In this document: positions 10,986 through 32,000 of the stretch, in pieces
How the letters are laid out: each line of letters starts with the position of its first letter
Position numbering within the stretch: position 1 is the first letter of the stretch
From: Candidatus Iainarchaeum sp.
GTDB taxonomy: Archaea; Iainarchaeota; Iainarchaeia; Iainarchaeales; JACQJH01
DNA: 32,000 bases
Assembly: GCA_016205145.1 (NCBI GenBank)
Contig: JACQJH010000001.1
Location: 90,001 to 122,000, forward strand
Reading direction: 5' to 3'
Translations under genes and position numbers: made by a program
Notes under the pieces: model-generated
What the model was told of the DNA's origin: nothing
Databases searched by the model: none
The model's input: the letters and a program-made list of their open reading frames with translations, nothing else

Positions 10986-11948
10986 GTGAAAAAAACAAGG
11001 ACGATTTTTATTCCACTAATACTGTTTGCCGCATTGGTCTTTGCGGGCTGCACACAGGCAAACGAAAAAACGGGTTTGCTGACACTCAGCGCCAACGAAC
11101 GCGTAAACATTCTTGACGGTGACAGGTACTGGTCATTAGGAGCAGGAAAAGCCGACGGCATAACAGGACAACCGTTGCAGGACACTTCAACAATCTACCC
11201 CGGCTCATTTTCAATAAGAGACCTCTGGGTGCAAAAAGACAGATTATTCATTGACAGAACCGGCAGAATCGGAATCGGAACAACAGCCCCAGAAGTCAAA
11301 CTTGACATAAAAGAATCCGACCAAACATACCCGCCCTTAAGAATAACCAACACGAAAAACGATGGTTACGCAGGCATCGTCTTTGGCACAGATAGCGGCA
11401 TACAAGGGCACATGGGAGCCGCAGGTTATTATGCTGCCAATCAAAAGCTGAGAAACTCCGTTTATTTCGGGTCGACAGGGGACAAAAGAGTGGTAATAAC
11501 CGCAAACGGGATTCCCAGGATGTTCATTGAGCCGACATACTTTCAAAGCTTTATAACAAATTCGCCAGATGCAAATGGATCTACATCCTTTTCTGCCTCA
11601 ACGACCATGACTGCCGGAAACCAAGGAAGAGGAATATATTTTAGGGTAATGGATATTCAGGGAACTCGGACAGCATTGAGCGTCTCATTAGATGCAGGGG
11701 GGTCCACCGGAGTTTTCAGCGTAAACGCCCAAAAACTGGAAACAAGTGGCGGTACTTCATTCACGGCACCACAGACCGCCTTGTCTGTAACACCGGAAAC
11801 AATAAGGTTAACATTACTGAATGGCGCAAGAATAAAGATAGCGTCCTCCGCACCGGCTAACAGGCAGCTTTGTATTACTGGACAGCAAGAATTGGGTTTC
11901 TGTTCGAGTGTAAATGCGGATGGTACGTGCACATGCGTGCCAGTTTAA
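10986..11948 (+). CDS. lipobox surface protein with a tail-fibre-like GIGTT motif; paralog of 31240-32000
   Basis: GTG start 7 nt after GGAGG. MKKTRTIFIPLILFAALVFAGC is a signal plus lipobox. Contains DRTGRIGIGTTAPEVKLDIKESD and a C-terminal 4-Cys motif CITGQQELGFCSSVNADGTCTC. A 200-nt stretch is ~90% identical to the inverted copy at the window end. Confidence 0.7.
   Translation: MKKTRTIFIPLILFAALVFAGCTQANEKTGLLTLSANERVNILDGDRYWSLGAGKADGITGQPLQDTSTIYPGSFSIRDLWVQKDRLFIDRTGRIGIGTTAPEVKLDIKESDQTYPPLRITNTKNDGYAGIVFGTDSGIQGHMGAAGYYAANQKLRNSVYFGSTGDKRVVITANGIPRMFIEPTYFQSFITNSPDANGSTSFSASTTMTAGNQGRGIYFRVMDIQGTRTALSVSLDAGGSTGVFSVNAQKLETSGGTSFTAPQTALSVTPETIRLTLLNGARIKIASSAPANRQLCITGQQELGFCSSVNADGTCTCVPV
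11217..11416 (+). repeat. left arm of an inverted repeat pair (partner 31796-31995)
   Basis: Hand alignment of 11217-11416 against the reverse complement of 31796-31995 gives 19 mismatches in 200 nt, with identical runs up to 32 nt (gacataaaagaatccgaccaaacatacccgcc). Confidence 0.85.
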
Positions 11949-16813: not shown

Positions 16814-18424
16814 GTGGATCAAAACCTTCCAAAAGGCCAGTCCGCCATAGAATATCTTTTGCTGTTGGGCGCCGCGATTTTGATTGCCGCGGTTGTCGTT
16901 GCCTTGATTATTTTTGTGGGTTCCGGGGGCAAGCAGTCGGCGCAAAGAGGGTCGCAGACTGTTGCTGTAGCGCAGGGGAATCTTTCCAAATCCCTTGGCC
17001 TGCCAGGCCCCATCACCGACCGCGGCGGCGGAATTTTTGATTTGAAAAAGGATTTTGGCGCGAAAGGCGACGGGGTTTCCGACGATTATGAATCGTTCAT
17101 TGCTGCTGCGGCCAAGCTGAGCGGTTCGACTGACGCAACGCTTGTCATTCCTGCAGGGGACTATAAGATTGACCGGTACAAGATTTTGGCTGCGACTTCC
17201 GACGGCAGGCTTCCAAATGGCGTAACCGACATCAAGTTTTCCGGATGCAACGGCCTGGAAATTGTCGGCTTGGGAAAGGACGCATCGGGAAACTACAAGG
17301 CAAAAGTCGAGGTCAAGGGCGACTTTTACAGGTCGGCGGACCGCAGTGCCGTCAATGCCGCGGGCGTGACGGTGTGGAGTTCCAATTCCGGTTCGGTCAC
17401 GCCGTTTTATTTCGATCACTGTAACGGATTTTCCATTTCCGGCTTGGAATTGTACGGCAACAACGACAAGATGTCGCACGATCCGCGCGTCAGAGAACAC
17501 CCGTCAGGAATGGGCATTGCGACTTATGGCTGCAAAAATTATTCGATTTCCGACATTTTTGTGCACAACTTCCAGACGGACGGCATTTACCTTGGCGGCT
17601 CGGCAAGCCCCGTGGATTCGGGCGCAACCGTTGACGGCGTGGTTTCAAGCAGCAACGGCAGGCAGGGCCTCAGCATAATTCAGGTGAAAAACTCGACAAT
17701 AAAAAACAGCGTTTTCAAGGACACCGGCATTACGGGCGGAAGCGACACAGGATATAATCCGAGGGCCGGCGTTGACATCGAGCCGAACGTGAACGTCCCC
17801 AACATAACCGAAAATCTTGTTTTTGAAAACGACGAGTTCAGCAACAACCGCGGCTACCAGATTGTTTCAAGCGCTTATGTTGGCGGAATCGTGGTCAGGA
17901 ATTCAAGGGTTTTTTCGGGAAACCAGCGCAAGCTCGCCTATTTCAGGGTGAACGGCATTACAATCGAGGGCTCCGAATTCAAGACTTCTGCAAGGGAGTT
18001 TGCCCAGGACTGGGACAAGAGCGGATTCGGGGTCACTCTCATGGCGGGCGGAACCGCGCTTATAAAAAACAATCTCATAGAGGCATCCTCGTTGGCGTAT
18101 CCTGTGAAAACCGTTGGAATCCACAGGCCTTACGTGCACTTCTTTTCGGGAAGCGGGATAACCTTTGCGGGCAACAGAATTTCCACCGACTCAAGCTTTT
18201 TTTATCCCATTTCAGGGCAGGCTTATGACACCGCAATTTATTTGAACGTCGGCGAATCCTCGAACAACACTTTTTCGACCGGCATGACCGGCTTAAACCA
18301 TTTCGCAGTCGTTTACGGCCCGGCCACAAAAGTCGTTTCAGACGCGTTTTTGCCGCGGGACAATTTCAGGCCGCAGCCGGGATATGTTTGGACTGGCGCA
18401 GGCAACTCTTATTCGCAGAACTGA
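16814..18424 (+). CDS. class III (prepilin-type) signal peptide fused to a right-handed beta-helix, pectate-lyase-superfamily domain
   Basis: GTG start. N-terminus MDQNLPKG/QSAIEYLLLLGAAILIAAVVVALI (basic residue-Gly, then Q at +1, E at +5, then a hydrophobic helix). Followed by FDLKKDFGAKGDGVSDDYESF..VIPAGDY and repeated PbH1-like turns: NGFSISGLELYGNN, YSISDIFVHNFQTDGIYLGG, GLSIIQVKNSTIKNSVF, LVFENDEFSNN. Confidence 0.8.
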   Translation: MDQNLPKGQSAIEYLLLLGAAILIAAVVVALIIFVGSGGKQSAQRGSQTVAVAQGNLSKSLGLPGPITDRGGGIFDLKKDFGAKGDGVSDDYESFIAAAAKLSGSTDATLVIPAGDYKIDRYKILAATSDGRLPNGVTDIKFSGCNGLEIVGLGKDASGNYKAKVEVKGDFYRSADRSAVNAAGVTVWSSNSGSVTPFYFDHCNGFSISGLELYGNNDKMSHDPRVREHPSGMGIATYGCKNYSISDIFVHNFQTDGIYLGGSASPVDSGATVDGVVSSSNGRQGLSIIQVKNSTIKNSVFKDTGITGGSDTGYNPRAGVDIEPNVNVPNITENLVFENDEFSNNRGYQIVSSAYVGGIVVRNSRVFSGNQRKLAYFRVNGITIEGSEFKTSAREFAQDWDKSGFGVTLMAGGTALIKNNLIEASSLAYPVKTVGIHRPYVHFFSGSGITFAGNRISTDSSFFYPISGQAYDTAIYLNVGESSNNTFSTGMTGLNHFAVVYGPATKVVSDAFLPRDNFRPQPGYVWTGAGNSYSQN

Positions 18425-18483
18425 CGTTTGCCTTTTGTGCACTTGGGCGTGCCAAAGGATTTAATTTGTGTGAATGATATTTG

Positions 18484-20031
18484 ATGGTGAAACCGATGTT
18501 TTCCCGTGGCCAGTCCGCAATCGAGTATCTGCTGTTGCTTGGCGCCGCGATTTTGATTGCCGCGGTTGTCGTTGCCTTGATTTCTTTTGTGGGTTCGGGC
18601 GGAAAGACTTCGGCGCAGGAATCAGGCGTGCAGCAGAGGCTGGCAATGCAGAACCTTGCGGCTGTTGGGGGCATGGGTTTCTCCTATTCCTGTGTTGCTA
18701 ATGGTGTCTGCGAAGCCGATGAAACAATGCAGTCCTGTTCCGCGGACTGTGCTGGCAAGCCTTTCAGGCAGTACCTGCATTTTTATTCGGCGGAGGCGGG
18801 GGGTTCTGAGGTTTCTTCCGTGCCGGCGCCCATGCTTAACGTGCCCGCTTCGGGTTTGCGGCATTATATCTATGTCGAGCTTTCCGAAATGCACGGGCAT
18901 CTCAGTGTTTACCGTTCCGCCACCGTAAACAATGCGAATAACCGGTCTGTCGCGCTTTCACCCGGCGAAATCGACGCGCTGTTCAATCTTTACGGCGTGG
19001 AAACGGGCAATCCTGTTAGAGGGAAGAGCATGAACATGAGCATACTGCAGCGTGCCGACGTGCAGAAAATCCATCATGAACTTGCACAAGGCAATCCTGC
19101 GTATAATGCAAAGTACGGCAATGGCGGCCTGGAAACAGGGGTCGGGCTTGACGGTTCCGGAATGCCCGTTCTTGATGCTTCCGACAAGCTTGTGCCGGAC
19201 AGACCGGTACAGGATTACCAAGACGGCAAAACAATGCTGTGGCCGTTTTACTACAATGCCAGCGGCAAGCATAAGATGAGGGTTCTCTGGAACCTTAACA
19301 GCCCGGCGGTCAGGGAATATCTTGTGCGGTACGGCGTGAAAACCGCCTCTTTCAGTCCAAGCGGCGACCTGTTTATTGACAACACTATTTTTCCGGGCCA
19401 GGTGCTGGAGGATTATTCATATGTTTTTTCAGGTGCAAGGAACGGCCTTGCGGCGCATCTTTCCGGCATTACATTGGAAATTCGGGCAGAAATCGTGAAA
19501 CGGCTTGACGGAAAGGGGCTGATAATGAACGCTCTCAGGTTCACAAACTCCGACAATGAGATATTTTCTGATGCTGTTGTTGATTCCGGCCAGTTTGACG
19601 GTTTGATGGCCGAAAACCAGTTTTGGCGTGATGGCATTGCCATTGGCGGTTCTCCAAGGGGTGCGACGTCCGTTGCATGGTACCGGGATTTGACGCAGAA
19701 AATGAAATCAAAAGGCAAAAAGATTCTTTTTACGGCCTCCGGCTCCGGTTTTACGCGGGCTGATCCCTCAAAGATTTTGCCAGTTTGGTTATGGTTGCAC
19801 TTGGTTGCTGATGACAGCACGTATTTTCTATTGCCGGGCAATGGAGCCGATGGCGATTCGTTTGATAACCAGTTCCTTCCGTTTGTTTTTCCGCTCGGCT
19901 ATCCGCTTGACCAAGCACCGGTGCAGGACGGCAGTGTGTGGAGCAGGCGCTATGAGCGCGGCACGATTGTTTTTGACATTTCAAGCGGAAGGCTTGACGC
20001 CATAAGGTTCGAGGAAAACCCGCCCGGGTGA
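18484..20031 (+). CDS. class III (prepilin-type) signal peptide fused to a Cys mini-module and a GH-like domain; paralog of 26452-28209
   Basis: N-terminus M(VKPM)FSRG/QSAIEYLLLLGAAILIAAVVVALI; alternative ATG at 18496. 18541-18582 is 42/42 identical to 16868-16909. CVANGVCEADETMQSCSADC is followed by ~430 aa collinear with the 26452 gene (SGQFDGLMAEN, WLWLHLVADD, GYPLDQAPVQDGSVWSRRYERGTIVFD). The enzymatic family is not confidently named. Confidence 0.8.
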   Translation: MVKPMFSRGQSAIEYLLLLGAAILIAAVVVALISFVGSGGKTSAQESGVQQRLAMQNLAAVGGMGFSYSCVANGVCEADETMQSCSADCAGKPFRQYLHFYSAEAGGSEVSSVPAPMLNVPASGLRHYIYVELSEMHGHLSVYRSATVNNANNRSVALSPGEIDALFNLYGVETGNPVRGKSMNMSILQRADVQKIHHELAQGNPAYNAKYGNGGLETGVGLDGSGMPVLDASDKLVPDRPVQDYQDGKTMLWPFYYNASGKHKMRVLWNLNSPAVREYLVRYGVKTASFSPSGDLFIDNTIFPGQVLEDYSYVFSGARNGLAAHLSGITLEIRAEIVKRLDGKGLIMNALRFTNSDNEIFSDAVVDSGQFDGLMAENQFWRDGIAIGGSPRGATSVAWYRDLTQKMKSKGKKILFTASGSGFTRADPSKILPVWLWLHLVADDSTYFLLPGNGADGDSFDNQFLPFVFPLGYPLDQAPVQDGSVWSRRYERGTIVFDISSGRLDAIRFEENPPG

Positions 20032-20108
20032 ATTTTCGCCCAAGTCGGAATTCGGTGGCCCGGAAAGCTTTTTATATGGTTTTACACTATTTTCTATTGT
20101 GTTTTAAT

Positions 20109-20357
20109 ATGAATTTGACCGTCAATTTTTCCGGCCACGTTGAAGACGTAATTGAACGCCTCGTTGAAAAAGGCGTTGTCAAAACGAAATCCGAAGCGCT
20201 TCGGCTTGGCATTCTGAAGCTTGAAGAGCAGTATCTGCGCAGCCTTGACGCAGATGACCTGATTTTGGCTGAAAAGGCATGGGATGATTTCAAAGCAGGC
20301 AAGAACAAATCTCTGTCGGAAAGGGAGTTCTACTCTAAAACAGGCCTGAAAAAATGA
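20109..20357 (+). CDS. putative antitoxin (ribbon-helix-helix-like) of a RelE-family toxin
   Basis: 82 aa from ATG 20109; the track ORF starts at 20028. MNLTVNFSGHVEDVIERLVEKGVVKTKSEALRLGILKLEE has a strand-helix-helix pattern. Its stop overlaps the toxin start (ATGA, 20354-20357). Confidence 0.6.
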   Translation: MNLTVNFSGHVEDVIERLVEKGVVKTKSEALRLGILKLEEQYLRSLDADDLILAEKAWDDFKAGKNKSLSEREFYSKTGLKK

Positions 20358-20605
20358 GTTTTGAAGCGGTTTTTCTTGAATCTTTTGCCGATGACGTGGC
20401 AAGGCTTGACGGCAGCCAAAAAACGCTTGTTGAAAAAAGGCTCCGCAGGCTCACTGCAAACCCGTTTTCCGAAAAGCCACTTCACGGCCAGAAACGGTTT
20501 TGGGCTTCGAGGATCCTGAACCTGAGAATAATTTACCGCATTGAAGGGCAAAAAATATTTTTTGCCAGGGTTTCAAGCAGGAAAGACGTTTACAAAAACC
20601 TGTAG
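20354..20605 (+). CDS. relE: RelE/ParE-superfamily type II toxin
   Basis: 83 aa. FADDVARLDGSQKTLVEKRLRRLTANPF..PLHG....SRILNLRIIYRIEGQKIFFARVSSRKDVYK matches the RelE/StbE pattern (...RiiY.i......i..v.hRkdvY). Confidence 0.8.
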   Translation: MSFEAVFLESFADDVARLDGSQKTLVEKRLRRLTANPFSEKPLHGQKRFWASRILNLRIIYRIEGQKIFFARVSSRKDVYKNL

Positions 20606-21665: not shown

Positions 21666-23285
21666 TTATTTTTTGCCAATGCGCTCCAGCTTTTCATCCG
21701 CCTTCTTTTCCGCTTCCAGCCTTTCCAGGCCCGCGCCTTTCTCGTAGACGAATTTCATGAGTTCGAAGACAAGCGGGGTCGCCTTTTTCGCCTGATGGAA
21801 CATTTCGATTGAAACCCTTCGGTAGTCGGCGTGTCCCTGCGGCGTCGACCTCAGCTCAACCAAGTGGTACATTTCACGCGCGTTGAGAGTGAAATACCAT
21901 CTTATTTTGTACGCGAGCGGGACAACGTATTGTGCCTGCAACGGCATTTCCTTCGCGATTTTATCGTAAGTTTCCTTCGCTCCTGCCATTGCCTTTTCAA
22001 ATTCCTTCAAAACGCCCGCCTTTTCCAGTTCGGGATAAGTGTCATAGCCGAAGTTTGCCGTCAAAAGCTGGCGTTCCTGTGTAAGCTGGCGATGTCGGTG
22101 CAAGTCACGGAAGCCGCCGTAATTTGAGAGCAAGTCGAAAGTGTAGTATGCGTTTTCGAAGCTTCGCAAAGGCTTGTGCCTGCGGTTCTGCCTGTGCGCA
22201 AGAGATGCATGGATGACTTTGCGCTTTTCCTCTTCGCCCATTGCGGCAACGATTTTTTTGAGCTGGTGCAGGGGCTTGTCGCTGTGCGCGTAAAGCAGCG
22301 CGCAAACGATTTTGTTGTCGGCTTCCATGTCAAAGTCGACCAGTTCCACTTCCTTTGCCTGCTCCGCATGTTTGCCTGCAAGCAGTTCTTTTGCGGTTGC
22401 GTCAAGGTTTGCGTTCGCCTGCCTGAAAAAATCCTGTGTCGGGCCGCCGTATTTTCCGGCCGCGCGCTTGACGAAAGAAGGAATGTAAGTCAAAAGCTCT
22501 TCGTGCAATGAAGAAGCGATGCCGTTGATTTCCTTCAATGGCGAGGCGTGCATTTTGAGTATGAGGTATTCGAACGCCCTGCCATTGCCGTACAGGCCGA
22601 GGTTTGTCAGCGTTGAAGCAGGCAGGAGGCCGCGCAGGAGGTCGCAGGTTTTAGCCTTGATTGTCGACTTGTACGCGCGGTCGGTTGTCTCGGAGTCCTG
22701 CGGAAACCATTCCTCGGCCTGTGTTCTCACTTTCGGCACGAGTTCGGCGTACGTGCCGAACAGCAAATCGCACGTTTCCACGTAATCCTTTTCGAATGCC
22801 GACTGCATTATGCCAGGCTCGAGCAGGTACTGGTATCGGCCGCCCTCTTTCTCGTCAAAGTAAACGTAGCGCGTGCTTTTTTCCAGGGGGGAGAGGCCAA
22901 TGCGTGAATCCTCGAGGACTTTGCTTGCGATGATTGAAACCTTTTCGCATGCGACGTGCGCTCCGCCTAATTCCGCGACGGAATCGTCGCCGTAGCCGAC
23001 CAGAACGCGGTCGTAAAACTCTTCGGCTTTCTTGGTTGCGATTGCCTGCTGTTCTCCGTTTCCAAGTGAATAGTTGACGATTTCCCGGAAGCCGGATTCC
23101 TTGTCGGCAATGAATTCGTCGAGCAAAAGCCTGCGCAATGGTTTCGGCGAGCGCGAATAGCGCGAGAACAGTGCGCCTGAAACGACTTCGGGCAGGTTTT
23201 TGAGGACAAAGACGTTTTTGTCCATGTTCGAAAAAAACGGTTCCAGGATTTTCCGCTCTTCCGAGGAAAAAGAATTTTCCGCCAT
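21666..23285 (-). CDS. long-form ThyX-like (Thy1-fold) protein, putative FAD-dependent thymidylate synthase
   Basis: 539 aa. The C-terminal half has FRDLHRHRQLTQERQ and TLNAREMYHLVELRSTPQGHADYR, which align with the ThyX RHR motif and NxRxLxxxxxLR...H/Q region. N-terminal GALFSRYSRS suggests a second, degenerate copy. Confidence 0.6.
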   Translation of the reverse strand: MAENSFSSEERKILEPFFSNMDKNVFVLKNLPEVVSGALFSRYSRSPKPLRRLLLDEFIADKESGFREIVNYSLGNGEQQAIATKKAEEFYDRVLVGYGDDSVAELGGAHVACEKVSIIASKVLEDSRIGLSPLEKSTRYVYFDEKEGGRYQYLLEPGIMQSAFEKDYVETCDLLFGTYAELVPKVRTQAEEWFPQDSETTDRAYKSTIKAKTCDLLRGLLPASTLTNLGLYGNGRAFEYLILKMHASPLKEINGIASSLHEELLTYIPSFVKRAAGKYGGPTQDFFRQANANLDATAKELLAGKHAEQAKEVELVDFDMEADNKIVCALLYAHSDKPLHQLKKIVAAMGEEEKRKVIHASLAHRQNRRHKPLRSFENAYYTFDLLSNYGGFRDLHRHRQLTQERQLLTANFGYDTYPELEKAGVLKEFEKAMAGAKETYDKIAKEMPLQAQYVVPLAYKIRWYFTLNAREMYHLVELRSTPQGHADYRRVSIEMFHQAKKATPLVFELMKFVYEKGAGLERLEAEKKADEKLERIGKK

Positions 23286-23350
23286 TGCCCCACCAGACTA
23301 AATTAAAGCAATGGCAATGGTTAAATATTTCACTTTTGATTATTGTTTTC

Positions 23351-26300
23351 ATGCCCCATAAAACCGGCCGGCCGCGCCATTATTCCGACAGGGCCATTAA
23401 GCGGCCCGGAAGAGGCTTTTCGCATGGCCAGGGCTCTTTGGACCGCCTGATTCTCCTCGGAATCGTGGTTTTGGTTTTCGCAGTCATAATGCTTGTTGCC
23501 TTTTCCCGTCCGCATGAAAGGGCTGACGGGAAAGTGCAGGCCTATTATGCGGGGAATGGGCGGAGTGGCGTTCGTGAAGTGTTCGACTTTTTGGGCGTGC
23601 TAAAATTTGGCATGAATTCCGGTTCCGGCGGCCCTGAAATTAAGCCCGCCGTCATTCCGGGTGACGTGAACCAAAGCAAAAAGCCGGATGTCGTGCCCGC
23701 AACAGGCACTGACAAGGAACCCGTGATTCGGGCCTGCAGCAATGACTGTTCTTCCGCCGGCTTGAGGCAGTGTTCCGGTTCCGGCTATAATGTCTGCGGA
23801 AACTTTGACGAAGACGACTGCCTTGAATGGGGTTCCTGGACAGGCTGTCCTGACGGCCGGGCGTGCGCCAACGGAAACTGCGAAGTTTCTCGCGGGGTTT
23901 TTTCTTCTGAGGGCCTTGTTTCATACTGGCGTTTTGATGATTTGTCGGATTCGTTTGGTTCAAATGATTTGGTTATGTCCGGCAATGTTGTTGCGGGTTC
24001 TTCGCCTGATTGCGCTTTCGGCGGCTGCCTTGCCCTTGATTCTTCTTCCGGGCAGGCCGAAGCCAGGGGTTTGCCGGATTCGGGCGGTTTGTCTGATTTG
24101 TCGATTGCGTTGCGCGTCAAGTTTGGCGCCGGTGGCGATACTGCCACCCGGGCCTGGGTGGCGGGCTGGGCCGATGCGCAGGGCCAGGGCGTAGGTTTTT
24201 ACCGCTATGGCGCCAGCCAGCTTGTTTTTTTCGCCAACGGCGCGGATGGCAGTTTGACTGATTGCTGGAGTTCCGCCTTGAATGACGGCAAATGGCACCG
24301 GCTGGCGGGCGAGGCGTCTGAACAGCACATAACCTTGTTTGTGGACGGGTTTCCTCTTTGTTACAAGGCGCGTTCCGGCGCATTTCTTTCCGGCGCCAGC
24401 TTCAAGGCCGGCGGCCCGGTTTCCCCATCTGGCAGCGTTCTTGTTGACGAGCTGATGGTTTTCGACCGTTCGTTCACGCAGTTCGTTCACCCGCAGGCCG
24501 GTTACACTTTGCTGGGCGCTTTGCCATCCAACGCGCTTGGCATGAGGGGGCCGGTTATAGGCGCCGGCGGCGCGGTGCCGGGCGTGTACCTGTTTGACGG
24601 CAAAATATACTTTTTTTCCAGCATGGACGCATACAACTATTATAGCCTTTGCAGTTACGCCGTTTCAGGCAGCTCCGCGCGCTCTTTTGCTGTCGAGTAC
24701 GGTGATCGTTACAATACCTTCTTCGTGGACGGGGGCTTGGTGTGTGCGTGGCCGGCAAACCGCGGGCTCGCCGTTGCGCGTCCGCCTGACGACGGCTATG
24801 CCAATGAAGGGGCGGCCGCAACCACGCGGCTGCAGGCGGGCACGTTCCTGTCAACGGCCGGCCTTGACGGGCTGCCCGTGCACCGCAAGCGCCTAATTAC
24901 CGCGGGCTGGCTCAGCCCTGATTTGAAGTCCTTAAAGGAAGACCTTGGCGTGTACGACGAGTCCGGATTCGACGGCATCGCGATAGACGACGAGGTATTC
25001 TTCAATGAACCGGGCAGGCCGTGGCCATTGAATATATTTCAGAAGACCGCCTTAAGCACGGGCCGCAGGTACCGGGAAGGGCAGTTTGACGCCGTCGCCG
25101 GAGAAGTCGGGCAGGCCCTGGGAAAAGCGAAGAACCTGAAGCATAATTACATGGTACTCTATCTGGGCTGGACGCATTCGTCGGTTCTCGGCAACCACCT
25201 GAGCCCGGTGCTCGATGCGGACGGGATACCGGTATTCGACGCCAACGGCCTTAAGCTCCATAACCTGACTGCGGACGAGCAATGGCAAATCATTGCCGGC
25301 AACGCGCGGGTTGCAGCAGGGCTGGCGAAAAAGGCCGGCCTTGAAGGAATCATAATTGATACTGAACAGAACTATTCGGTCAACACCCAGGACCCCGGTT
25401 ACATTGCTTACAAGGGTTCTCCGCTTACCCTCAGCTACGAACAATCCGTGCCGGTCAATCCGGCGCCGTTCGCCGAGTACGAGGCCGCGGCCCGCCAGCG
25501 GGGGCAACAATTGGCATCCGCGATGGCCGAGGAGTATCCGGACATGACCGTGCTCTTCCATTTTGCGTACAGCCTGTACAGCGACAAGGACAGAAAGGAA
25601 ACAGGCGGAATCGACCAAAAGAGTTATTTGGAACGGTATACCCTACTGCCTGCCTTCATCGACGGCATGCTCGAAGGCGCTCCGGGCATCCGGTTCATTG
25701 ACGGCGACGAGTGGACCTACACCATCCGGCGGCGCGGGCAACTGCTTGACCGCAAGAAGCATTTCCTTGAAAACGCGCTTGAAAAATCCGCCACAAACAC
25801 GCCCGGGAACCGACAGATTGAATACGGTCAAGAGCTGTGGGCTACCGTGCTTGAGCAGACGCCCGATGATGCAGCTTGGGTTGATGTAAACTTTATTCCC
25901 GAAGATGAGATTGAATTGGCTAAGCAGTTCGGATACGGAATCCGCGACGCCTTGCGCGCAAGCGAGGGCATGGTTCTGATTTGGCACGCACAGCGTCCGC
26001 CGTGGCCGGTCTACCGGACTGCAAGAAATGGGCAGAGGTACCGCGCCCAGGGCGTGATGCCCGATTCTTTCAGACAGGCGATAAAGGATGCGCGCAAGAA
26101 TGTCGAGGGCAACACCAATCCGGTGATGCCGGTTGTCGGTTTTGTTTCGGCAGGCACGGGGGAAAAAGTTTCAATCACTTTGCCTGAGGCAAGCGACGCC
26201 GACGGGGATTCCTTGATTACCTGGGTTGACGGCCTGCCGGAAGGCGCGTCTTACGAGCCGCTTTCCCGCACAATCGAATGGCCGAACCCGCGCGCGGGAA

Positions 26301-26377
26301 TCTACTCCCTGTCTTACGGCGCTTCCGACGGCTTTTTGGAAGCCGCGGCACAGTTCAGCCTTGTGATTTACGGCTAG
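23351..26377 (+). CDS. large secreted multidomain protein: possible degenerate class III signal, Cys-rich module, LamG/ConA-like lectin domain, ~550-aa putative TIM-barrel-like domain, C-terminal Ig/cadherin-like domain
   Basis: 1008 aa from ATG 23351; the track start 23285 would abut the divergent gene. FSHG/QGSLDRLILLGIVVLVFAVIMLV. CSNDCSSAGLRQCSGSGYNVCGNFDEDDCLEWGSWTGCPDGRACANGNC. LamG-type GLVSYWRFDDLSDSFGSNDLVMSGN...WHRLAG...LFVDG...VDELMVFDRSF. GFDGIAIDDE and GLEGIIIDTEQNY. C-terminal ITLPEASDADGDSLITWVDGLPEGASYEP...GIYSLSYGASDG. Confidence 0.8.
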   Translation: MPHKTGRPRHYSDRAIKRPGRGFSHGQGSLDRLILLGIVVLVFAVIMLVAFSRPHERADGKVQAYYAGNGRSGVREVFDFLGVLKFGMNSGSGGPEIKPAVIPGDVNQSKKPDVVPATGTDKEPVIRACSNDCSSAGLRQCSGSGYNVCGNFDEDDCLEWGSWTGCPDGRACANGNCEVSRGVFSSEGLVSYWRFDDLSDSFGSNDLVMSGNVVAGSSPDCAFGGCLALDSSSGQAEARGLPDSGGLSDLSIALRVKFGAGGDTATRAWVAGWADAQGQGVGFYRYGASQLVFFANGADGSLTDCWSSALNDGKWHRLAGEASEQHITLFVDGFPLCYKARSGAFLSGASFKAGGPVSPSGSVLVDELMVFDRSFTQFVHPQAGYTLLGALPSNALGMRGPVIGAGGAVPGVYLFDGKIYFFSSMDAYNYYSLCSYAVSGSSARSFAVEYGDRYNTFFVDGGLVCAWPANRGLAVARPPDDGYANEGAAATTRLQAGTFLSTAGLDGLPVHRKRLITAGWLSPDLKSLKEDLGVYDESGFDGIAIDDEVFFNEPGRPWPLNIFQKTALSTGRRYREGQFDAVAGEVGQALGKAKNLKHNYMVLYLGWTHSSVLGNHLSPVLDADGIPVFDANGLKLHNLTADEQWQIIAGNARVAAGLAKKAGLEGIIIDTEQNYSVNTQDPGYIAYKGSPLTLSYEQSVPVNPAPFAEYEAAARQRGQQLASAMAEEYPDMTVLFHFAYSLYSDKDRKETGGIDQKSYLERYTLLPAFIDGMLEGAPGIRFIDGDEWTYTIRRRGQLLDRKKHFLENALEKSATNTPGNRQIEYGQELWATVLEQTPDDAAWVDVNFIPEDEIELAKQFGYGIRDALRASEGMVLIWHAQRPPWPVYRTARNGQRYRAQGVMPDSFRQAIKDARKNVEGNTNPVMPVVGFVSAGTGEKVSITLPEASDADGDSLITWVDGLPEGASYEPLSRTIEWPNPRAGIYSLSYGASDGFLEAAAQFSLVIYG

Positions 26378-26417
26378 CGGCCTATAACCGTTTGGCATTC
26401 TTTCATGGGCATGCTTT

Positions 26418-26492
26418 CTGTTTTAAAAAACCTTTCAGGGCAATCGTTTTTATGCATCCAAGCGACGCCATCAAGGGAACCGCGTCAAAAAG
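26418..26492 (+). repeat. direct repeat copy A: promoter plus first 13 codons (partner 28245-28320)
   Basis: ctgttttaaaaaacctttcagggcaatcgtttttatgcatccaagcgacgccatcaagggaaccgcgtcaaaaag is ~84% identical to copy B, with an identical 21-nt core cgtttttatgcatccaagcga. The TATA-like ttttaaaaaa (26421-26430) lies ~26 nt upstream of the conserved ATG at 26452. Confidence 0.85.
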
Positions 26493-28209
26493 ATTTTTCA
26501 TGCCGCATTTGAAACCGGTTGTTGTCTGCGCATTTGTGTTGCTTGTTTTGCTTTCCGGTTGCACCGCCACAAAAAGCAAAGGCGTGGAAAAGCCGGTTGA
26601 TTCCGACAAAAACTTTTTGGATTCAAACCAAGCCAAGTCCGCGCCCGAAACTGGCGGGCCGCGACAGCCGCCAACCACGGAATTGGTTGCTGAACAACCG
26701 GACGCCAATGTTCCGGATGCAAACGCCGGCGCACCCGACGTGAATGCAGCGGCTGCTGTCGTGTTTTGTAACCGGAACGGCGCCTGCGACACAAACGAGT
26801 CCGCGGTTTCCTGTCCGGCCGATTGTGCCATTCTTTCCGGAGGCGGAGGAGGCGGCAATTCGCCACAGCCGCCGTCAGGAAACGATAGCGGTTCGTGCAA
26901 TTCGGACGGCGCATGCAACGGAAACGAGGACACAGCTTCATGCCCTGCTGACTGCAGTGTAAGGCAGTTCAGGCATTATTTGCGGTTTTATGCTTTGGAT
27001 TACTATAATCGGTTTTCAACAAAGCCGCCGGCGCCGGAAGGGCTGGTTGAATTCACCATCACGCAGGGCACGCCTTTTGGCAACCTGCAGGATTATACTC
27101 ATTTTAATGTGACGGATTCCGGCCATGTTGTTTTGACAACTTCCACTGCGCCCAAAACTCTTGTTGCGTTGAGCCAAAGCGAGCTTGACGGCTTGTTTGC
27201 GCAGTATGGTTTTGGCGGGGATAAAAACAACATCTATTCTGGCGTGATTGCAAGGGCTGAAGTCGGGAAAATCCATGAGGAACTTGTAGAACGCCATCCG
27301 GAGCTTTTTCCGAACGGCACTGAATTGTTTGTCGGCGCCGTCATAGGGCCGGACGGGTTGCCCGAGCTCGTGGACAACTTTCCGGTCAGGGAAAGAAGCG
27401 ACATTGCCGACTACCAGCTTGGCAAAACAATGGTTTACCCGCTTCCATATTCGCCGGTCGGCTACGGGCGGTACCGGACGCTTTGGAATCACGGCAGCTG
27501 GGCGGTCAGGGTATATCTTGCAAGAAGGGCCAATAAGCTGGTGAATGGCGTTCCAGGCGTGGAGAATATTTTTTTGGATAACGTGCAATTGCCGGCTTAT
27601 ATCAAATATCTTGGCTCCCGTGTTGGTTCGGTTCCGGTGCCAAATTATGTTTCGCCCGGAAGCAGGGATGAACAGTTTGCTGTTTATGCGAACAATTTTG
27701 TTTCGGTTCTTACTGCCGTTCGCGTAAAAACCGGCGCAAAAATGCTTCTTAACGGTTTGTATGAAGTGAAGGCTAACCAAAGCATTTTTTTTCAAAAACT
27801 AATTGCGTCCGGCCAGTTTGACGGCCTTATGACGGAAAACGGGTTTTTTGCTGACGGCGTGGAAAACAATTTGGGCGGCAGCGCGGCAAGCGTGCAATGG
27901 TACTGGGATCAGGTGCAGTGGTTGAAGCAAAACGGCAAAAACGCGGTTTTTTTGGCGGGCGGGAAGGACGCTTCGAAGGCATCCAAGGCCTGGCTTTGGG
28001 TGCATTTAGTTGCTGACACCAATGTTTTCTTTTCGACCAATCCCAATGAACATTTTGACGTTTACGATTCTCCTTTGGGGTATCCTCTTGACCAGGCTCC
28101 GGTAAAAAACGGCAGCGTGTGGAGCAGGCGCTACGAGCGCGGCACGATTGTCTTTGACGTTTCGGGCGGAAGGCTTGACGACATAAAGTTTGTCGAAGGC
28201 CCGGCATAG
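26452..28209 (+). CDS. lipobox-anchored GH-like protein with two Cys mini-modules; paralog of 18484-20031
   Basis: MHPSDAIKGTASKRFFMPHLKPVVVCAFVLLVLLSGC; alternative start at 26500. FCNRNGACDTNESAVSCPADCA, a GGGGGG linker and CNSDGACNGNEDTASCPADCS. The body is collinear with the 18484 gene (SGQFDGLMTEN, WLWVHLVADT, GYPLDQAPVKNGSVWSRRYERGTIVFD). Confidence 0.8.
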   Translation: MHPSDAIKGTASKRFFMPHLKPVVVCAFVLLVLLSGCTATKSKGVEKPVDSDKNFLDSNQAKSAPETGGPRQPPTTELVAEQPDANVPDANAGAPDVNAAAAVVFCNRNGACDTNESAVSCPADCAILSGGGGGGNSPQPPSGNDSGSCNSDGACNGNEDTASCPADCSVRQFRHYLRFYALDYYNRFSTKPPAPEGLVEFTITQGTPFGNLQDYTHFNVTDSGHVVLTTSTAPKTLVALSQSELDGLFAQYGFGGDKNNIYSGVIARAEVGKIHEELVERHPELFPNGTELFVGAVIGPDGLPELVDNFPVRERSDIADYQLGKTMVYPLPYSPVGYGRYRTLWNHGSWAVRVYLARRANKLVNGVPGVENIFLDNVQLPAYIKYLGSRVGSVPVPNYVSPGSRDEQFAVYANNFVSVLTAVRVKTGAKMLLNGLYEVKANQSIFFQKLIASGQFDGLMTENGFFADGVENNLGGSAASVQWYWDQVQWLKQNGKNAVFLAGGKDASKASKAWLWVHLVADTNVFFSTNPNEHFDVYDSPLGYPLDQAPVKNGSVWSRRYERGTIVFDVSGGRLDDIKFVEGPA

Positions 28210-29596: not shown

Positions 29597-31009
29597 ATGC
29601 CGGCCGCGGTTGGAGTTGATTCGTTGAAAAAAAGCATGTTTTTCGTTTTGCTGTTTTTTGGTGTTGTTGTTTCGGGCTGCCTTCAAACTGACTCTGAAAA
29701 AGCCGCCATTGAGCTTTCAGCTTCGACTGTTGAAGGAAAACTCGCCAAGACCCTGATGGAATCGCTGAAAAAGACAGGCGAGTGCAGCGTATCGGATTAT
29801 GCCGGGGTTGCCGGCCCGGCCAACCCGCTGATAAGAAACATGGGCTTTAACGTTTCTCTTCCGACACAGGAGACCGAAGCCGCCGAATTGGTTGAAAATG
29901 CAAAAGAATGCAATGTGCAATTGCTGCGGAACGTTTTGGAAGTCGAAAAGGACAAAAAATACCAGGTCAACTACACTGCAAAAGTTGACAGTTCCTGCAA
30001 ATACTCCGGCCTAAAACCGGTTTTGTCGGCTTATATTTTGACGATTTCGGTCGACCTTGAGGAAAAAACAGCGGTTGTTGAAAAGGGAAAGCTTAAGGAC
30101 AGCATTGCACAGCAGGTATCAGAGTTCCAGCCGGCTTTTATGCTCATGGGAAAGTGCGCGGCTCCAATACTGCTCGGCATTGGATTTTTCGGGGACTTTT
30201 TGGGTTCAGACAGCGGCCCGGGCTTAGACGGCGGTCCAGACGAAGGGGAAAAGATAGCTTACGGCTTTGACGCTTTCTGGGATGATTCGAAACAAAACCC
30301 GATTCAGCTGTCGTGGAATCACGCCCAAAGTGACGGCCAGTACTATGTCGCAATTGAAATGTGGGCCACCGGCAACAGTTCGCCGCTTGGTTCAATTGAA
30401 ACGACCATAGAGAACTTAAAGGACGGCCCGGCGTTCCCGTTGGGCCACGTTTTCAGTTATGACCTGGACGGCGGGGAAATTTATTATGGCGGGCAGCTGT
30501 CATACCCGCACGAATTCAAGGTCGATGCCTATCTTTTGGACAGTGAATACAGCATTGTGGAAAAGTTCGGCTACAAGGAATTTTCAATTGGCGCGCCCCA
30601 ACAGCAGGAGGCGCCGGATGCAGCAGGCGTTGTTTCGAATTTTGTTGCAAGATGGGACGCCGAAGACAGCCAGAACCCCCTGAAGTTTACATGGGATTTT
30701 GTTCCGCAGGGCGGCCAGTATTTTGTGGCGCTTGACATGTGGAATACCGGCAACAGTTCGCCGCTTGGTTCGATTGAAATGACCATAGAGCGGTTAAAGG
30801 AGGGCTCGCCGTTCCCGTTGGGCCATGTTTATGCCGCGGAAGACGGAAGCGGCTCGCTTTATTGGGGCGGGCAATACACTTATCCGGACGTGTTCAGGAT
30901 ACACGCATACCTCTTGGACGAATCATATGATTTGGTCGGGGAAACAGCGTATGTTGAATTGACAAGAAACAATGCTGACGAAAGCCCGACATCGGTTCCC
31001 ATCGGATGA
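29597..31009 (+). CDS. lipobox protein with a C-terminal tandem 126-aa repeat
   Basis: 470 aa. ...KKSMFFVLLFFGVVVSGC is a signal plus lipobox; an in-frame TTG at 29624 is an alternative start. Two repeat units share W(D/N)xxQxxGQY(Y/F)VAx(E/D)MWxTGNSSPLGSIExTIExLK(D/E)GxxFPLGHV...YxGGQxxYPxxFxxxAYLLD. Confidence 0.75.
   Translation: MPAAVGVDSLKKSMFFVLLFFGVVVSGCLQTDSEKAAIELSASTVEGKLAKTLMESLKKTGECSVSDYAGVAGPANPLIRNMGFNVSLPTQETEAAELVENAKECNVQLLRNVLEVEKDKKYQVNYTAKVDSSCKYSGLKPVLSAYILTISVDLEEKTAVVEKGKLKDSIAQQVSEFQPAFMLMGKCAAPILLGIGFFGDFLGSDSGPGLDGGPDEGEKIAYGFDAFWDDSKQNPIQLSWNHAQSDGQYYVAIEMWATGNSSPLGSIETTIENLKDGPAFPLGHVFSYDLDGGEIYYGGQLSYPHEFKVDAYLLDSEYSIVEKFGYKEFSIGAPQQQEAPDAAGVVSNFVARWDAEDSQNPLKFTWDFVPQGGQYFVALDMWNTGNSSPLGSIEMTIERLKEGSPFPLGHVYAAEDGSGSLYWGGQYTYPDVFRIHAYLLDESYDLVGETAYVELTRNNADESPTSVPIG
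30260..30964 (+). repeat. tandem intragenic repeat, two units (30260-30589 and 30638-30964), period 378 nt
   Basis: Core blocks at 30371-30452 and 30749-30830 are ~88-90% identical at the nucleotide level (ggcaacagttcgccgcttggttc.attgaaa.gaccatagag...gttcccgttgggcca.gttt). Confidence 0.8.
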
Positions 31010-31239: not shown

Positions 31240-32000
31240 TCACTGGCAGCCGCACGTGCCGTCAGCGTTCGGCGCGGTCGAGCAGACGCCGAGCTTATTG
31301 TCCGGGGTAATACACACGATTTTGTTTCTTGCCCCGACCTGGAAGCCGGTGGTTGGCCTATGCCCTCTGTAGCTAAGCAATACGTCTCCGCCCAGCTCAA
31401 TTTGCTTCGCGTCGAGAAAAATATTGCTTTTGCGGCCAACGTAACCGCTTGCCCCATTATTTTCCATGGTAATGCCGGCATAATCATTTGAGCCGGCACT
31501 GCCGGACGGCGCAACAAACTGTTCGTTGCCCTGCTGTCGCAGTTCTATTCTATCGGCACTCACTGAGATACTTGAGTACAAAATGTTTCCGTCTGTCAGG
31601 GGTTGTTTCCGGTCTTCCATGTAAATCCCCCTCTGCACGTGATTTGGCATCCCAGTATTAAGCGATGAGTTCAAGCGAATATATGTAAAACCGTCGGCAT
31701 TTTTCGTCGCTATTTTGGTTGGAATGTCGGCATTTGTGCTGCCAAAATAGACCGAGTTTCTAAGCGTTTCGTTCGCCGCGTTCGGCCCGGCAACGCCCAT
31801 GTGCCCTTGTATGCCGCTGCCCGTGCCAAAGATGAGGCCAGCGTAACCGTCGTTTTTCGTGTTGGTTATTCTGAGCGGCGGGTATGTTTGGTCGGATTCT
31901 TTTATGTCGAGTTTTACTTCCGGTGTTGTGGTTCCGATTCCGATTTTGCCGGTTCTGTCAACGAATAATCTGTCTTTTTGCACCCAGAGGTCCCTGATTG
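31240..32000 (-). CDS. tail-fibre-like GIGTT-motif protein, paralog of 10986-11948; 5' end beyond the window
   Basis: The reading frame stays open to the window edge (..IRDLWVQKDRLFVDRTGKIGIGTTTPEVKLDIKESDQTYPPLRITNTKNDGYAGLIFG...). The C-terminal CITPDNKLGVCSTAPNADGTCGCQ has the same 4-Cys motif as the paralog. The Met at 31983 in the track is internal, judged from the paralog alignment. Confidence 0.7.
   Translation of the reverse strand, partial: IRDLWVQKDRLFVDRTGKIGIGTTTPEVKLDIKESDQTYPPLRITNTKNDGYAGLIFGTGSGIQGHMGVAGPNAANETLRNSVYFGSTNADIPTKIATKNADGFTYIRLNSSLNTGMPNHVQRGIYMEDRKQPLTDGNILYSSISVSADRIELRQQGNEQFVAPSGSAGSNDYAGITMENNGASGYVGRKSNIFLDAKQIELGGDVLLSYRGHRPTTGFQVGARNKIVCITPDNKLGVCSTAPNADGTCGCQ
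31796..31995 (-). repeat. right arm of the inverted repeat pair (partner 11217-11416)
   Basis: See the left arm: ~90% identity over 200 nt in inverted orientation. Confidence 0.85.

Follow-up and report, generated by a model that had tools for sequence, protein, structure and literature searches.

A TIM barrel of an unnamed family in a probable surface polysaccharide hydrolase from a DPANN archaeon

What is the function of a large archaeal surface protein in which Pfam recognises only a single domain, and what is the long region in its centre? The question is raised by a gene from Candidatus Iainarchaeum sp. It lies at 23351..26377, on the plus strand, of a stretch of 32,000 nucleotides (contig JACQJH010000001.1, positions 90,001 to 122,000 of the forward strand), and we refer to this whole stretch as the window. 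The gene runs from an ATG to the stop codon at 26375-26377 and encodes 1008 amino acids (aa); NCBI lists the product as the hypothetical protein HY394_00570, from a metagenome-assembled genome of Candidatus Diapherotrites, on a contig of 613 kb. A first-pass annotation, made by a model that had only the sequence and its open reading frames, described a surface protein with a pilin-type signal, a cysteine module, a lectin domain, an unassigned central region and a tail resembling an immunoglobulin (Ig) domain. The strings that it quoted (leader and helix, eight cysteines at aa 129-177, GFDGIAIDDE, GLEGIIIDTEQNY and a C-terminal segment) are all found where it had placed them.

We consider it probable that HY394_00570 is a multi-domain carbohydrate-active enzyme of the cell surface, and likely an anchored polysaccharide hydrolase, with a catalytic domain from a family that has not been described. 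The general design, that of an anchored multi-domain surface protein, is familiar; the new part is the barrel family.

The central TIM barrel and its family

According to the first-pass annotation, the LamG-type lectin domain is followed by one uncharacterised region of about 550 aa. The region is indeed present, but it consists of two units, an orphan spacer (aa 384-508) and a TIM barrel (aa 509-923). The features of the barrel are the following.

24875..26119, plus strand: (beta/alpha)8 TIM-barrel domain of 415 aa (aa 509-923), presumed to be catalytic, delimited by profile, AlphaFold and Foldseek
24965..24994, plus strand: GFDGIAIDDE (aa 539-548), that is, FDG and strand beta2 (aa 542-545)
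25163..25270, plus strand: insertion of ~35 aa that follows beta3 in this protein alone, with low model confidence; it displaces the WFDD motif of the family, here LTAD
25337..25375, plus strand: GLEGIIIDTEQNY (aa 663-675), containing strand beta4 (aa 666-670) and ending in D670-T-E672, candidate catalytic residues
25700..25720, plus strand: DGDEWTY, the end of beta6 with D784, E787 and Y790, a second candidate catalytic cluster

The fold was predicted with AlphaFold2 from an alignment of 46 sequences (HY394_00570 and 45 single-domain relatives). The model has a mean predicted local distance difference test (pLDDT) of 80.9 and a predicted template modelling score (pTM) of 0.87, and it shows eight alternating strands and helices. 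Compared with the PDB using Foldseek, it gives 155 matches at an expectation value (E) <= 1e-3. Every one of them is a (beta/alpha)8 barrel, and the majority belong to glycoside hydrolases (GH), with GH20, GH13, GH5, GH10, GH1 and GH35 barrels in the lead; in a viral library the top match is a protein with a GH18 domain (template modelling score, TM, 0.43). On the strength of this model we regard the barrel fold as settled, and no solved structure is closely related to it. The first-pass annotation had likened motifs of the region to the strand ends of TIM-barrel hydrolases, and this comparison is borne out; the beta-sandwich repeats that it had named as the contrary outcome do not appear in the prediction.

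How far does the family extend? A phmmer search with aa 384-930 against 1.84 billion representative proteins (clusters at 50% identity) returned 628 clusters at E <= 1e-3, including 78 at E <= 1e-10, and the size of the family is thus at least 628. Nearly all of the matches are proteins of 350-600 aa whose alignment lies in the second half of the query, and in the 46-sequence alignment the homology covers all of aa ~512-925. A profile built from the 45 relatives, with HY394_00570 left out, finds aa 509-923 at 188.9 bits (E 3e-59) and covers profile positions 25-368 of 372. Judged from these alignments, the barrel is an end-to-end member of the family.

Like the first-pass annotation, we were not able to assign this family to any that has a name. 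Over the barrel region Pfam has no match in the 30 relatives that were scanned, and at E <= 1 only scattered single chance matches appear among all 46 aligned sequences. NCBIfam has no match for HY394_00570 or the aligned family, and sequence and profile searches of the PDB give weak LamG matches and chance matches, with nothing for the barrel. A word-index search with the family alignment found 13 proteins, all of them named no more precisely than "hypothetical protein", a tblastn search of plasmids with one family member gave no match, and in the literature we found no characterised member. By Pfam, NCBIfam and PDB the family is unnamed; it may already be listed in CAZy.

Conservation was calculated over 168 near-complete domains of the family. 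The conserved residues that are kept in HY394_00570 include D670 and G772 (100% each), E672 (99%), E787 and F769 (98%), Y790 and L765 (97%), R717 (94%) and D784 (92%), as well as G718; indeed, every position that is conserved at 92% or more is retained. The two acidic motifs pointed out by the first-pass annotation fare differently. In GLEGIIIDTEQNY, the stretch GIIIDTE is strand beta4 with the C-terminal D-x-E that is invariant in the family. In GFDGIAIDDE, on the other hand, G542 is conserved (99%) and kept, whereas the DDE trailing GFDGIAI is peculiar to this protein. From the model and the alignment together, we propose D670/E672 and D784/E787 as candidate pairs of catalytic carboxylates.

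Relatives of the barrel and its probable activity

Next, we asked in which proteins and in which genomic surroundings the barrel occurs. In the relatives, a Sec or lipoprotein signal at the N-terminus leads straight into the barrel. Among the 30 relatives scanned with Pfam, the fused domains are Laminin_G_3 (four proteins, in two of them N-terminal to the barrel as in HY394_00570), He_PIG (three), the sugar-binding domain GH2_N (three), and CBM96, CBM_4_9, ricin-B lectin and BetaGal_ABD2 (one each). As far as such domain assignments go, the order LamG, barrel, Ig in our protein is a combination of fusions found repeatedly in the family. The LamG fusions look independent of each other, since the LamG domain of the relative P0016 shows no pairwise similarity to the LamG domain and spacer of HY394_00570. 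We also noted that the two closest relatives, P0002 and P0003, each contain two copies of the barrel in a protein of more than 1200 aa, one of them together with He_PIG domains and the other with GH2_N.

For the gene context, the species genomes of GTDB were scanned with the motif Y[AS]LLPAF[LM]D, which was taken from a five-sequence alignment and samples one subgroup of the family. The scan gave nine loci, all in metagenome-assembled genomes (MAGs) of bacteria: one each from Alphaproteobacteria, Armatimonadota, Phycisphaeraceae, Myxococcales and an unclassified bacterium, and four from Verrucomicrobiota. In seven of the nine, the barrel gene stands among genes for exopolysaccharide (EPS) biosynthesis, such as glycosyltransferases (GT4/GT1), Bac_transf, Glycos_transf_4, NAD-dependent epimerases, Poly_export/SLBB (Wza) and Wzz/GNVR/AAA_31 (Wzc). 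Such loci are a setting in which bacteria encode glycanases that trim the polymer, for example PslG, PelA and BcsZ. The contexts of three other members are uninformative or merely suggestive; near one of these, P0158, there are GH42, ALGX and MBOAT genes. All relatives that could be placed to an organism are bacterial. In the Phycisphaeraceae MAG (L011:7789-9426) the barrel gene adjoins a weakly GHL10-like gene and a giant protein with TIG domains, so that the family is again paired with a "hypothetical glycosidase-like" barrel, as it is in the window.

Since the relatives are secreted, are fused to carbohydrate-binding modules and usually lie in EPS loci rich in Wza/Wzc and glycosyltransferase genes, the substrate is likely an extracellular polysaccharide. 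For HY394_00570 itself we favour the degradation of a foreign polysaccharide, from a host or a biofilm, over the processing of a self-made polymer, because the gene sits among those of surface enzymes and not among synthesis genes.

Potentially, the family could be enzymatic without hydrolysing glycosides. The barrel would then be an extracellular polysaccharide-modifying enzyme, a lyase, an epimerase or a transferase, acting on the EPS of the surrounding cluster. Ketose 3-epimerases are indeed matched by Foldseek at E and TM values similar to those of glycosidases, and EPS loci commonly hold modifying enzymes too, as in the locus of the family that is near the ALGX and MBOAT acetylation genes. 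We nevertheless think that this is rather improbable: fusions to GH2_N, CBM96, CBM4_9, ricin-B and LamG are the usual signature of enzymes that cleave glycans, glycosidases make up the majority of the fold matches, and conserved carboxylates that stand in pairs at strand ends are in keeping with acid/base catalysis.

Several observations weigh against the view of HY394_00570 as a polysaccharide hydrolase. The Foldseek matches in the PDB are weak (query-normalised TM 0.3-0.5, identity ~10%) and extend to barrels that are not glycosidases, such as sugar epimerases and old yellow enzymes. We found no tested activity for any member of the family, and glycosyltransferase or export genes are absent near the gene in the window. 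Finally, the barrel itself has Thr for D832 at the end of beta7, a position that is Asp in 84% of the family; its counterpart of the WFDD loop, following beta3, is LTAD, with the first Asp replaced by Ala (D641A), and in place of YVW on beta8 it has MVL (Y874M, W876L). These four positions are 84-89% conserved in the family and lie on or near the presumed catalytic face, and their loss may mean either that the specificity has changed or that the protein is inactive.

If it were inactive, the protein could be a non-catalytic adhesin, in which the barrel, the LamG domain and the Ig-like domain do no more than bind glycan on a host cell or another surface. Besides the four substitutions, the 35-aa insertion in the beta3 loop would fit such a role, and so would the mostly ectosymbiotic life that is ascribed to DPANN archaea (PMC8407392). 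On the other hand, D670/E672, D784/E787 and Y790 are kept, together with the other positions at or above 92%. Pseudoenzymes usually lose exactly such most-conserved residues, and a pure adhesin is in our opinion unlikely. Because positions at 84-89% conservation are lost and the insertion is present, we argue for a divergent specificity and leave room for a loss of activity; the protein is still best read as an anchored polysaccharide hydrolase.

The remaining domains and the N-terminus

Outside the barrel, the following features were recorded.

23321..23330, plus strand: TATA-like box TTAAATATTT, read from the sequence, 21-30 nt 5' of the ATG
23351..23428, plus strand: basic leader (aa 1-26), presumably cytoplasmic, with 7 K/R, 3 H and 1 D, ending in S-H-G
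23429..23506, plus strand: aa 27-52, QGSLDR and a hydrophobic helix of 19 residues (aa 33-51), a putative membrane anchor that may double as a degenerate class III (prepilin-type) signal with a cut at G26/Q27
23507..23725, plus strand: linker or stalk (aa 53-125), recognised by its high content of G, S, P and K; no family match
23726..23890, plus strand: eight-Cys module (aa 126-180) with C129, 133, 141, 149, 157, 166, 172 and 177
23891..24499, plus strand: LamG / concanavalin-A-like lectin domain (aa ~181-383), from a Laminin_G_3 match and weak PDB LamG matches
24500..24874, plus strand: orphan spacer of ~125 aa (aa 384-508), for which a homologue was not found
26120..26374, plus strand: Ig-like C-terminal domain, probably related to He_PIG (aa 924-1008)

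The lectin domain, which the first-pass annotation had called a clear LamG type, is confirmed by Laminin_G_3 (PF13385). It matches aa 247-377 with E 2e-7 and 31.7 bits, against a gathering cut-off of 27.6, and is the only domain in the protein that Pfam recognises above threshold. For the eight-Cys module and the linker, Pfam gives no match at E up to 10. The spacer (aa 384-508) is the best stretch of none of the 150 matches listed in an exhaustive phmmer search, and a word-index search with aa 125-512 gave no match. A single-sequence AlphaFold prediction of the same segment, which includes the spacer, the Cys module and the limits of LamG, has a pLDDT of 33 and is unusable.

At the C-terminus, aa 909-1008 align by BLASTP to two segments of the top relative P0002 (E 2e-6 and 5e-4), the second of which overlaps the He_PIG match that Pfam gives for this relative (aa 1012-1089). 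In HY394_00570 itself Pfam finds Big_9 only, at E 9.5e-4 and below the cut-off, and no He_PIG (PF05345). Of the He_PIG/cadherin-like Ig domain in the first-pass annotation, the Ig-like character and the link to He_PIG therefore survive through the alignment to P0002, but not as a Pfam match.

The N-terminus reads MPHKTGRPRHYSDRAIKRPGRGFSHG/QGSLDRLILLGIVVLVFAVIMLVAFS, where the slash marks a putative cut between G26 and Q27. Its natural reading is a topology with the N-terminus inside and the C-terminus outside, because under the positive-inside rule the seven K/R of the leader, against one acid, would stay in the cytoplasm ahead of the helix at aa 33-51. Is this helix part of a pilin-type signal, as the first-pass annotation proposed on the basis of two upstream genes? 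These genes and a third neighbour are the following.

16814-18424: beta-helix (pectate-lyase-like) protein with a class III signal
18481-20031: GHL15-like protein with a class III signal
26278-28209, with a probable start near 26452: GHL15-like paralogue with a lipobox (LLSGC) signal, downstream of HY394_00570

Here GHL15 is the Pfam family PF14885, which matches weakly in both of the GHL15-like genes. The two paralogues are 37% identical, and each has small four-Cys modules. The beta-helix gene and the upstream GHL15-like gene, which are otherwise unrelated, share a cassette of ~110 bp (16835-16945 and 18508-18618) at ~90% DNA identity, with a perfect run of 42 nt. This cassette covers the class III signal, the hydrophobic helix and a segment FVGSGGK.SAQ, and suggests, at the level of sequence, that the N-terminal "display" module has been spread by recombination or gene conversion.

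Archaeal prepilin peptidases require that the residue at -1, immediately ahead of the hydrophobic domain, be Gly, Ala or Ser, and a charge at -2 (K/R, sometimes D/E) is described as critical; Gln at +1 is a hallmark of EppA substrates, also with Glu at +5, and pilins typically have an acid at +5 (PMC4371748). In HY394_00570, the residue at -1, before QGSLDR and the helix, is G26, as demanded of an archaeal class III signal, and D at +5 is acceptable, since the hydrophobic domain behind the cut site should be unbroken except for an acid at +5. At -2 there is H25 in place of a charged residue, although His may be partly protonated and the rule is not absolute. Furthermore, the Arg at +6 is a second charge within the would-be pilin helix, so that D+5 and R+6 break the hydrophobic stretch and the run of 19 hydrophobic residues begins at +7. 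The upstream genes read KG/QSAIEYLLLLG, with S at +2 and A at +3. They have in common with our protein G-1, Q+1, an acid at +5, L+7, L+9, L+10 and G+11. The first-pass annotation was thus right about Q at +1 and L at +9 but not about S at +3, which is not shared; it had also noted the His at -2, the Asp at +5 and the basic leader of 26 aa, all of which are present, and did not list the Arg at +6.

If a peptidase of the PibD/EppA type cut at G26/Q27, the mature protein could enter the body or the tip of a fibre similar to a type IV pilus, or an assembly like the bindosome, beside the two upstream class-III-signal enzymes, and the barrel would be held away from the cell. The residues shared with the neighbours, in particular G-1, Q+1, the acid at +5 and the following L-x-L-L-G, speak for such a display, and Q+1 and the acid at +5 are those expected of EppA substrates and pilins, respectively (PMC4371748). 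By a rough, post hoc estimate, the chance of finding G-Q-x-S-x-[DE] in register before a hydrophobic helix is ~1e-4 to 1e-3. Moreover, since the enzyme-like products of the two genes 3-6 kb upstream bear class III signals that are weak but can be recognised, the organism appears to use the class III route for enzymes. On the other hand, a search with aa 1-60 and with aa 21-56 finds no match to Class_IIIsignal (PF04021) up to E 10, whereas both upstream neighbours match it weakly (E 0.0016-0.0073, below the gathering score). The leader of 26 aa contrasts with 7 and 10 aa in the neighbours, the ~110-bp cassette of the neighbours is absent, and the His at -2 and the Arg at +6 count against cleavage as well. 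Inside the window there is no gene for a PibD, FlaK or EppA peptidase. A display by way of a pilin-type cut therefore seems doubtful to us. The degenerate pilin-type signal of the first-pass annotation is not upheld: it is unproven, with both the charge at -2 and the Pfam model lacking. A cut by signal peptidase I would also be compatible with the sequence, since A-F-S/R at aa 50-53 agrees with its -3/-1 rule.

The arrangement at the cell surface may then be as follows. The basic leader would hold the N-terminus in the cytoplasm, and the helix at aa 33-51 would be the membrane anchor. The likeliest fate of this N-terminus is that of a signal anchor that stays uncleaved; less likely, the helix remains as the anchor after a prepilin-type cut at G26/Q27. 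The flexible stalk and the eight-Cys module, presumably rich in disulfides, would project the remaining domains off the cell. There, the LamG and the C-terminal Ig-like domain could bind or position the glycan, and the TIM barrel (aa 509-923) would cleave it by means of D670-x-E672 on beta4 and D784/E787 with Y790 on beta6.

The gene, its neighbourhood and known systems

The start of the gene bears directly on the length of the leader. Independent gene calls and the annotation of a second assembly give an identical protein with the same ATG at 23351. As there is no in-frame ATG, GTG or TTG between M1 and L30, the leader of 26 aa stands if this ATG is used. A longer open reading frame that starts with a TTG at 23285 was set aside: this frame would begin right beside the start codon of the divergent thyX, and the ATG at 23351 is the choice of both gene callers. 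Because of its usual archaeal promoter spacing, we take TTAAATATTT for a putative promoter element, and its position would fit a leaderless or near-leaderless mRNA.

The composition of the gene is unusual for the window. It has a GC content of 58.0% (66% at third codon positions), against 46.8-53.2% GC in 16 other genes of the window, and it is an outlier across all of its domains. In a word-index search of 5.8 billion proteins with the full protein, the sole match was the protein itself. Since the GC content deviates, the family members that can be named are all bacterial and no close full-length homologue was found, the data suggest a horizontal acquisition of the whole gene.

Several other genes of the window were noted. 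Divergent from our gene, over a spacer of 65 bp, is a ThyX-type thymidylate synthase (Pfam Thy1; 21666-23285, minus strand) of 539 aa; the usual length of ThyX is about half of this. Between the surface-enzyme genes, at 20028-20605, two small overlapping genes are probably a toxin-antitoxin pair, as the sequence of the second has a weak match to ParE_toxin. The genes at 10986-11948 (plus strand) and 31240-31983 (minus strand) encode paralogous surface proteins that Pfam does not match. Their overall identity is 43%, and they share a near-identical block of 60 aa (DRLFxDRTGxIGIGTTxPEVKLDIKESDQTYPPLRITNTKNDGYAG) and a C-terminal Cys motif. At 8409-10781 there is a lipoprotein of 790 aa (lipobox LAGC) with an internal duplication and several Cys-rich modules, and at 29597-31009 another lipobox protein with an internal repeat; on account of these two, Cys-rich surface proteins appear to be common in the window.

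A more specific account can be formulated. In it, the barrels form an undescribed GH family with the beta4 D-x-E and the beta6 D/E pair, whose bacterial members are dedicated glycanases of Wza/Wzc-type EPS loci. The archaeal copy would have been acquired horizontally and be displayed through a decayed pilin-type anchor, next to the beta-helix and GHL15-like enzymes with class III signals, and these proteins would jointly digest the polysaccharide of a host or a biofilm. This is possible, but we put it forward only tentatively.

If the barrel is catalytic, a sizeable group of carbohydrate-active enzymes has so far gone without a name. This group is tied to EPS loci in Verrucomicrobiota, Planctomycetota, Armatimonadota, Alphaproteobacteria and Myxococcales, and it would be a candidate new CAZy family and possibly a glycanase of biofilm matrices. 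The domain boundaries (aa 509-923) and the four candidate catalytic residues flag it for biochemical work. For the biology of DPANN archaea, the gene joins a small cluster of surface proteins that may act on polysaccharides, two of them on pilin-type signals, and this cluster is relevant to the ways in which such small archaea attach to other cells or feed on them.

How does HY394_00570 compare with known systems? The archaeal non-pilin class III proteins, for example those of the sugar-binding bindosome of Sulfolobus (PMC4371748), are likewise large extracellular proteins with a prepilin-type N-terminus, and the two upstream genes encode such proteins; HY394_00570 differs from them by its residue at -2 and by its lack of a match to the Pfam model.

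A relationship of the barrel with the GHL15-like neighbours was considered and rejected. The two have in common that they are predicted extracellular barrel enzymes of the same locus, with a faint local resemblance at the beta4 motif (BLASTP E 0.038). At the profile level, however, they are unlike each other: HY394_00570 has no match to GHL15 (PF14885) in Pfam, the BLASTP matches are only local (E 0.038-0.27), hhalign finds nothing, and the hidden Markov model of the barrel family does not score the neighbours.

Clan GH-K, with the GH18 chitinases and the GH20 hexosaminidases, comes closest in the fold searches, in that GH20 tops the PDB list and GH18 the viral one. GH18 enzymes carry the motif DxxDxDxE on strand beta4. 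In the barrel family, too, beta4 ends in D-x-E and a conserved Tyr follows beta6, but the full motif is absent from HY394_00570, which has only the final D-x-E (GIIIDTE), and the consensus of the family, G-x-K-G-I-x-x-D-x-E-x-Y, lacks the first two Asp. The TM values are only 0.36-0.48 at an identity of ~10%, and Pfam finds neither GH18 nor GH20 in the protein.

The glycoside hydrolases of EPS loci compared here are PslG (GH39), the hydrolase domain of PelA (GH166), BcsZ (GH8), Sph3 (GH135) and Ega3 (GH114). They are secreted or periplasmic, are encoded beside glycosyltransferase and export genes, and are mostly (beta/alpha)8 barrels with conserved carboxylates, and the likeness to them lies in the seven of nine loci of the bacterial relatives. 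There is no sequence match or close fold match between them and the family, whose barrel is larger (~340-415 aa). HY394_00570 itself is instead an archaeal, probably membrane-anchored, multi-domain protein, and it is encoded outside a biosynthesis locus.

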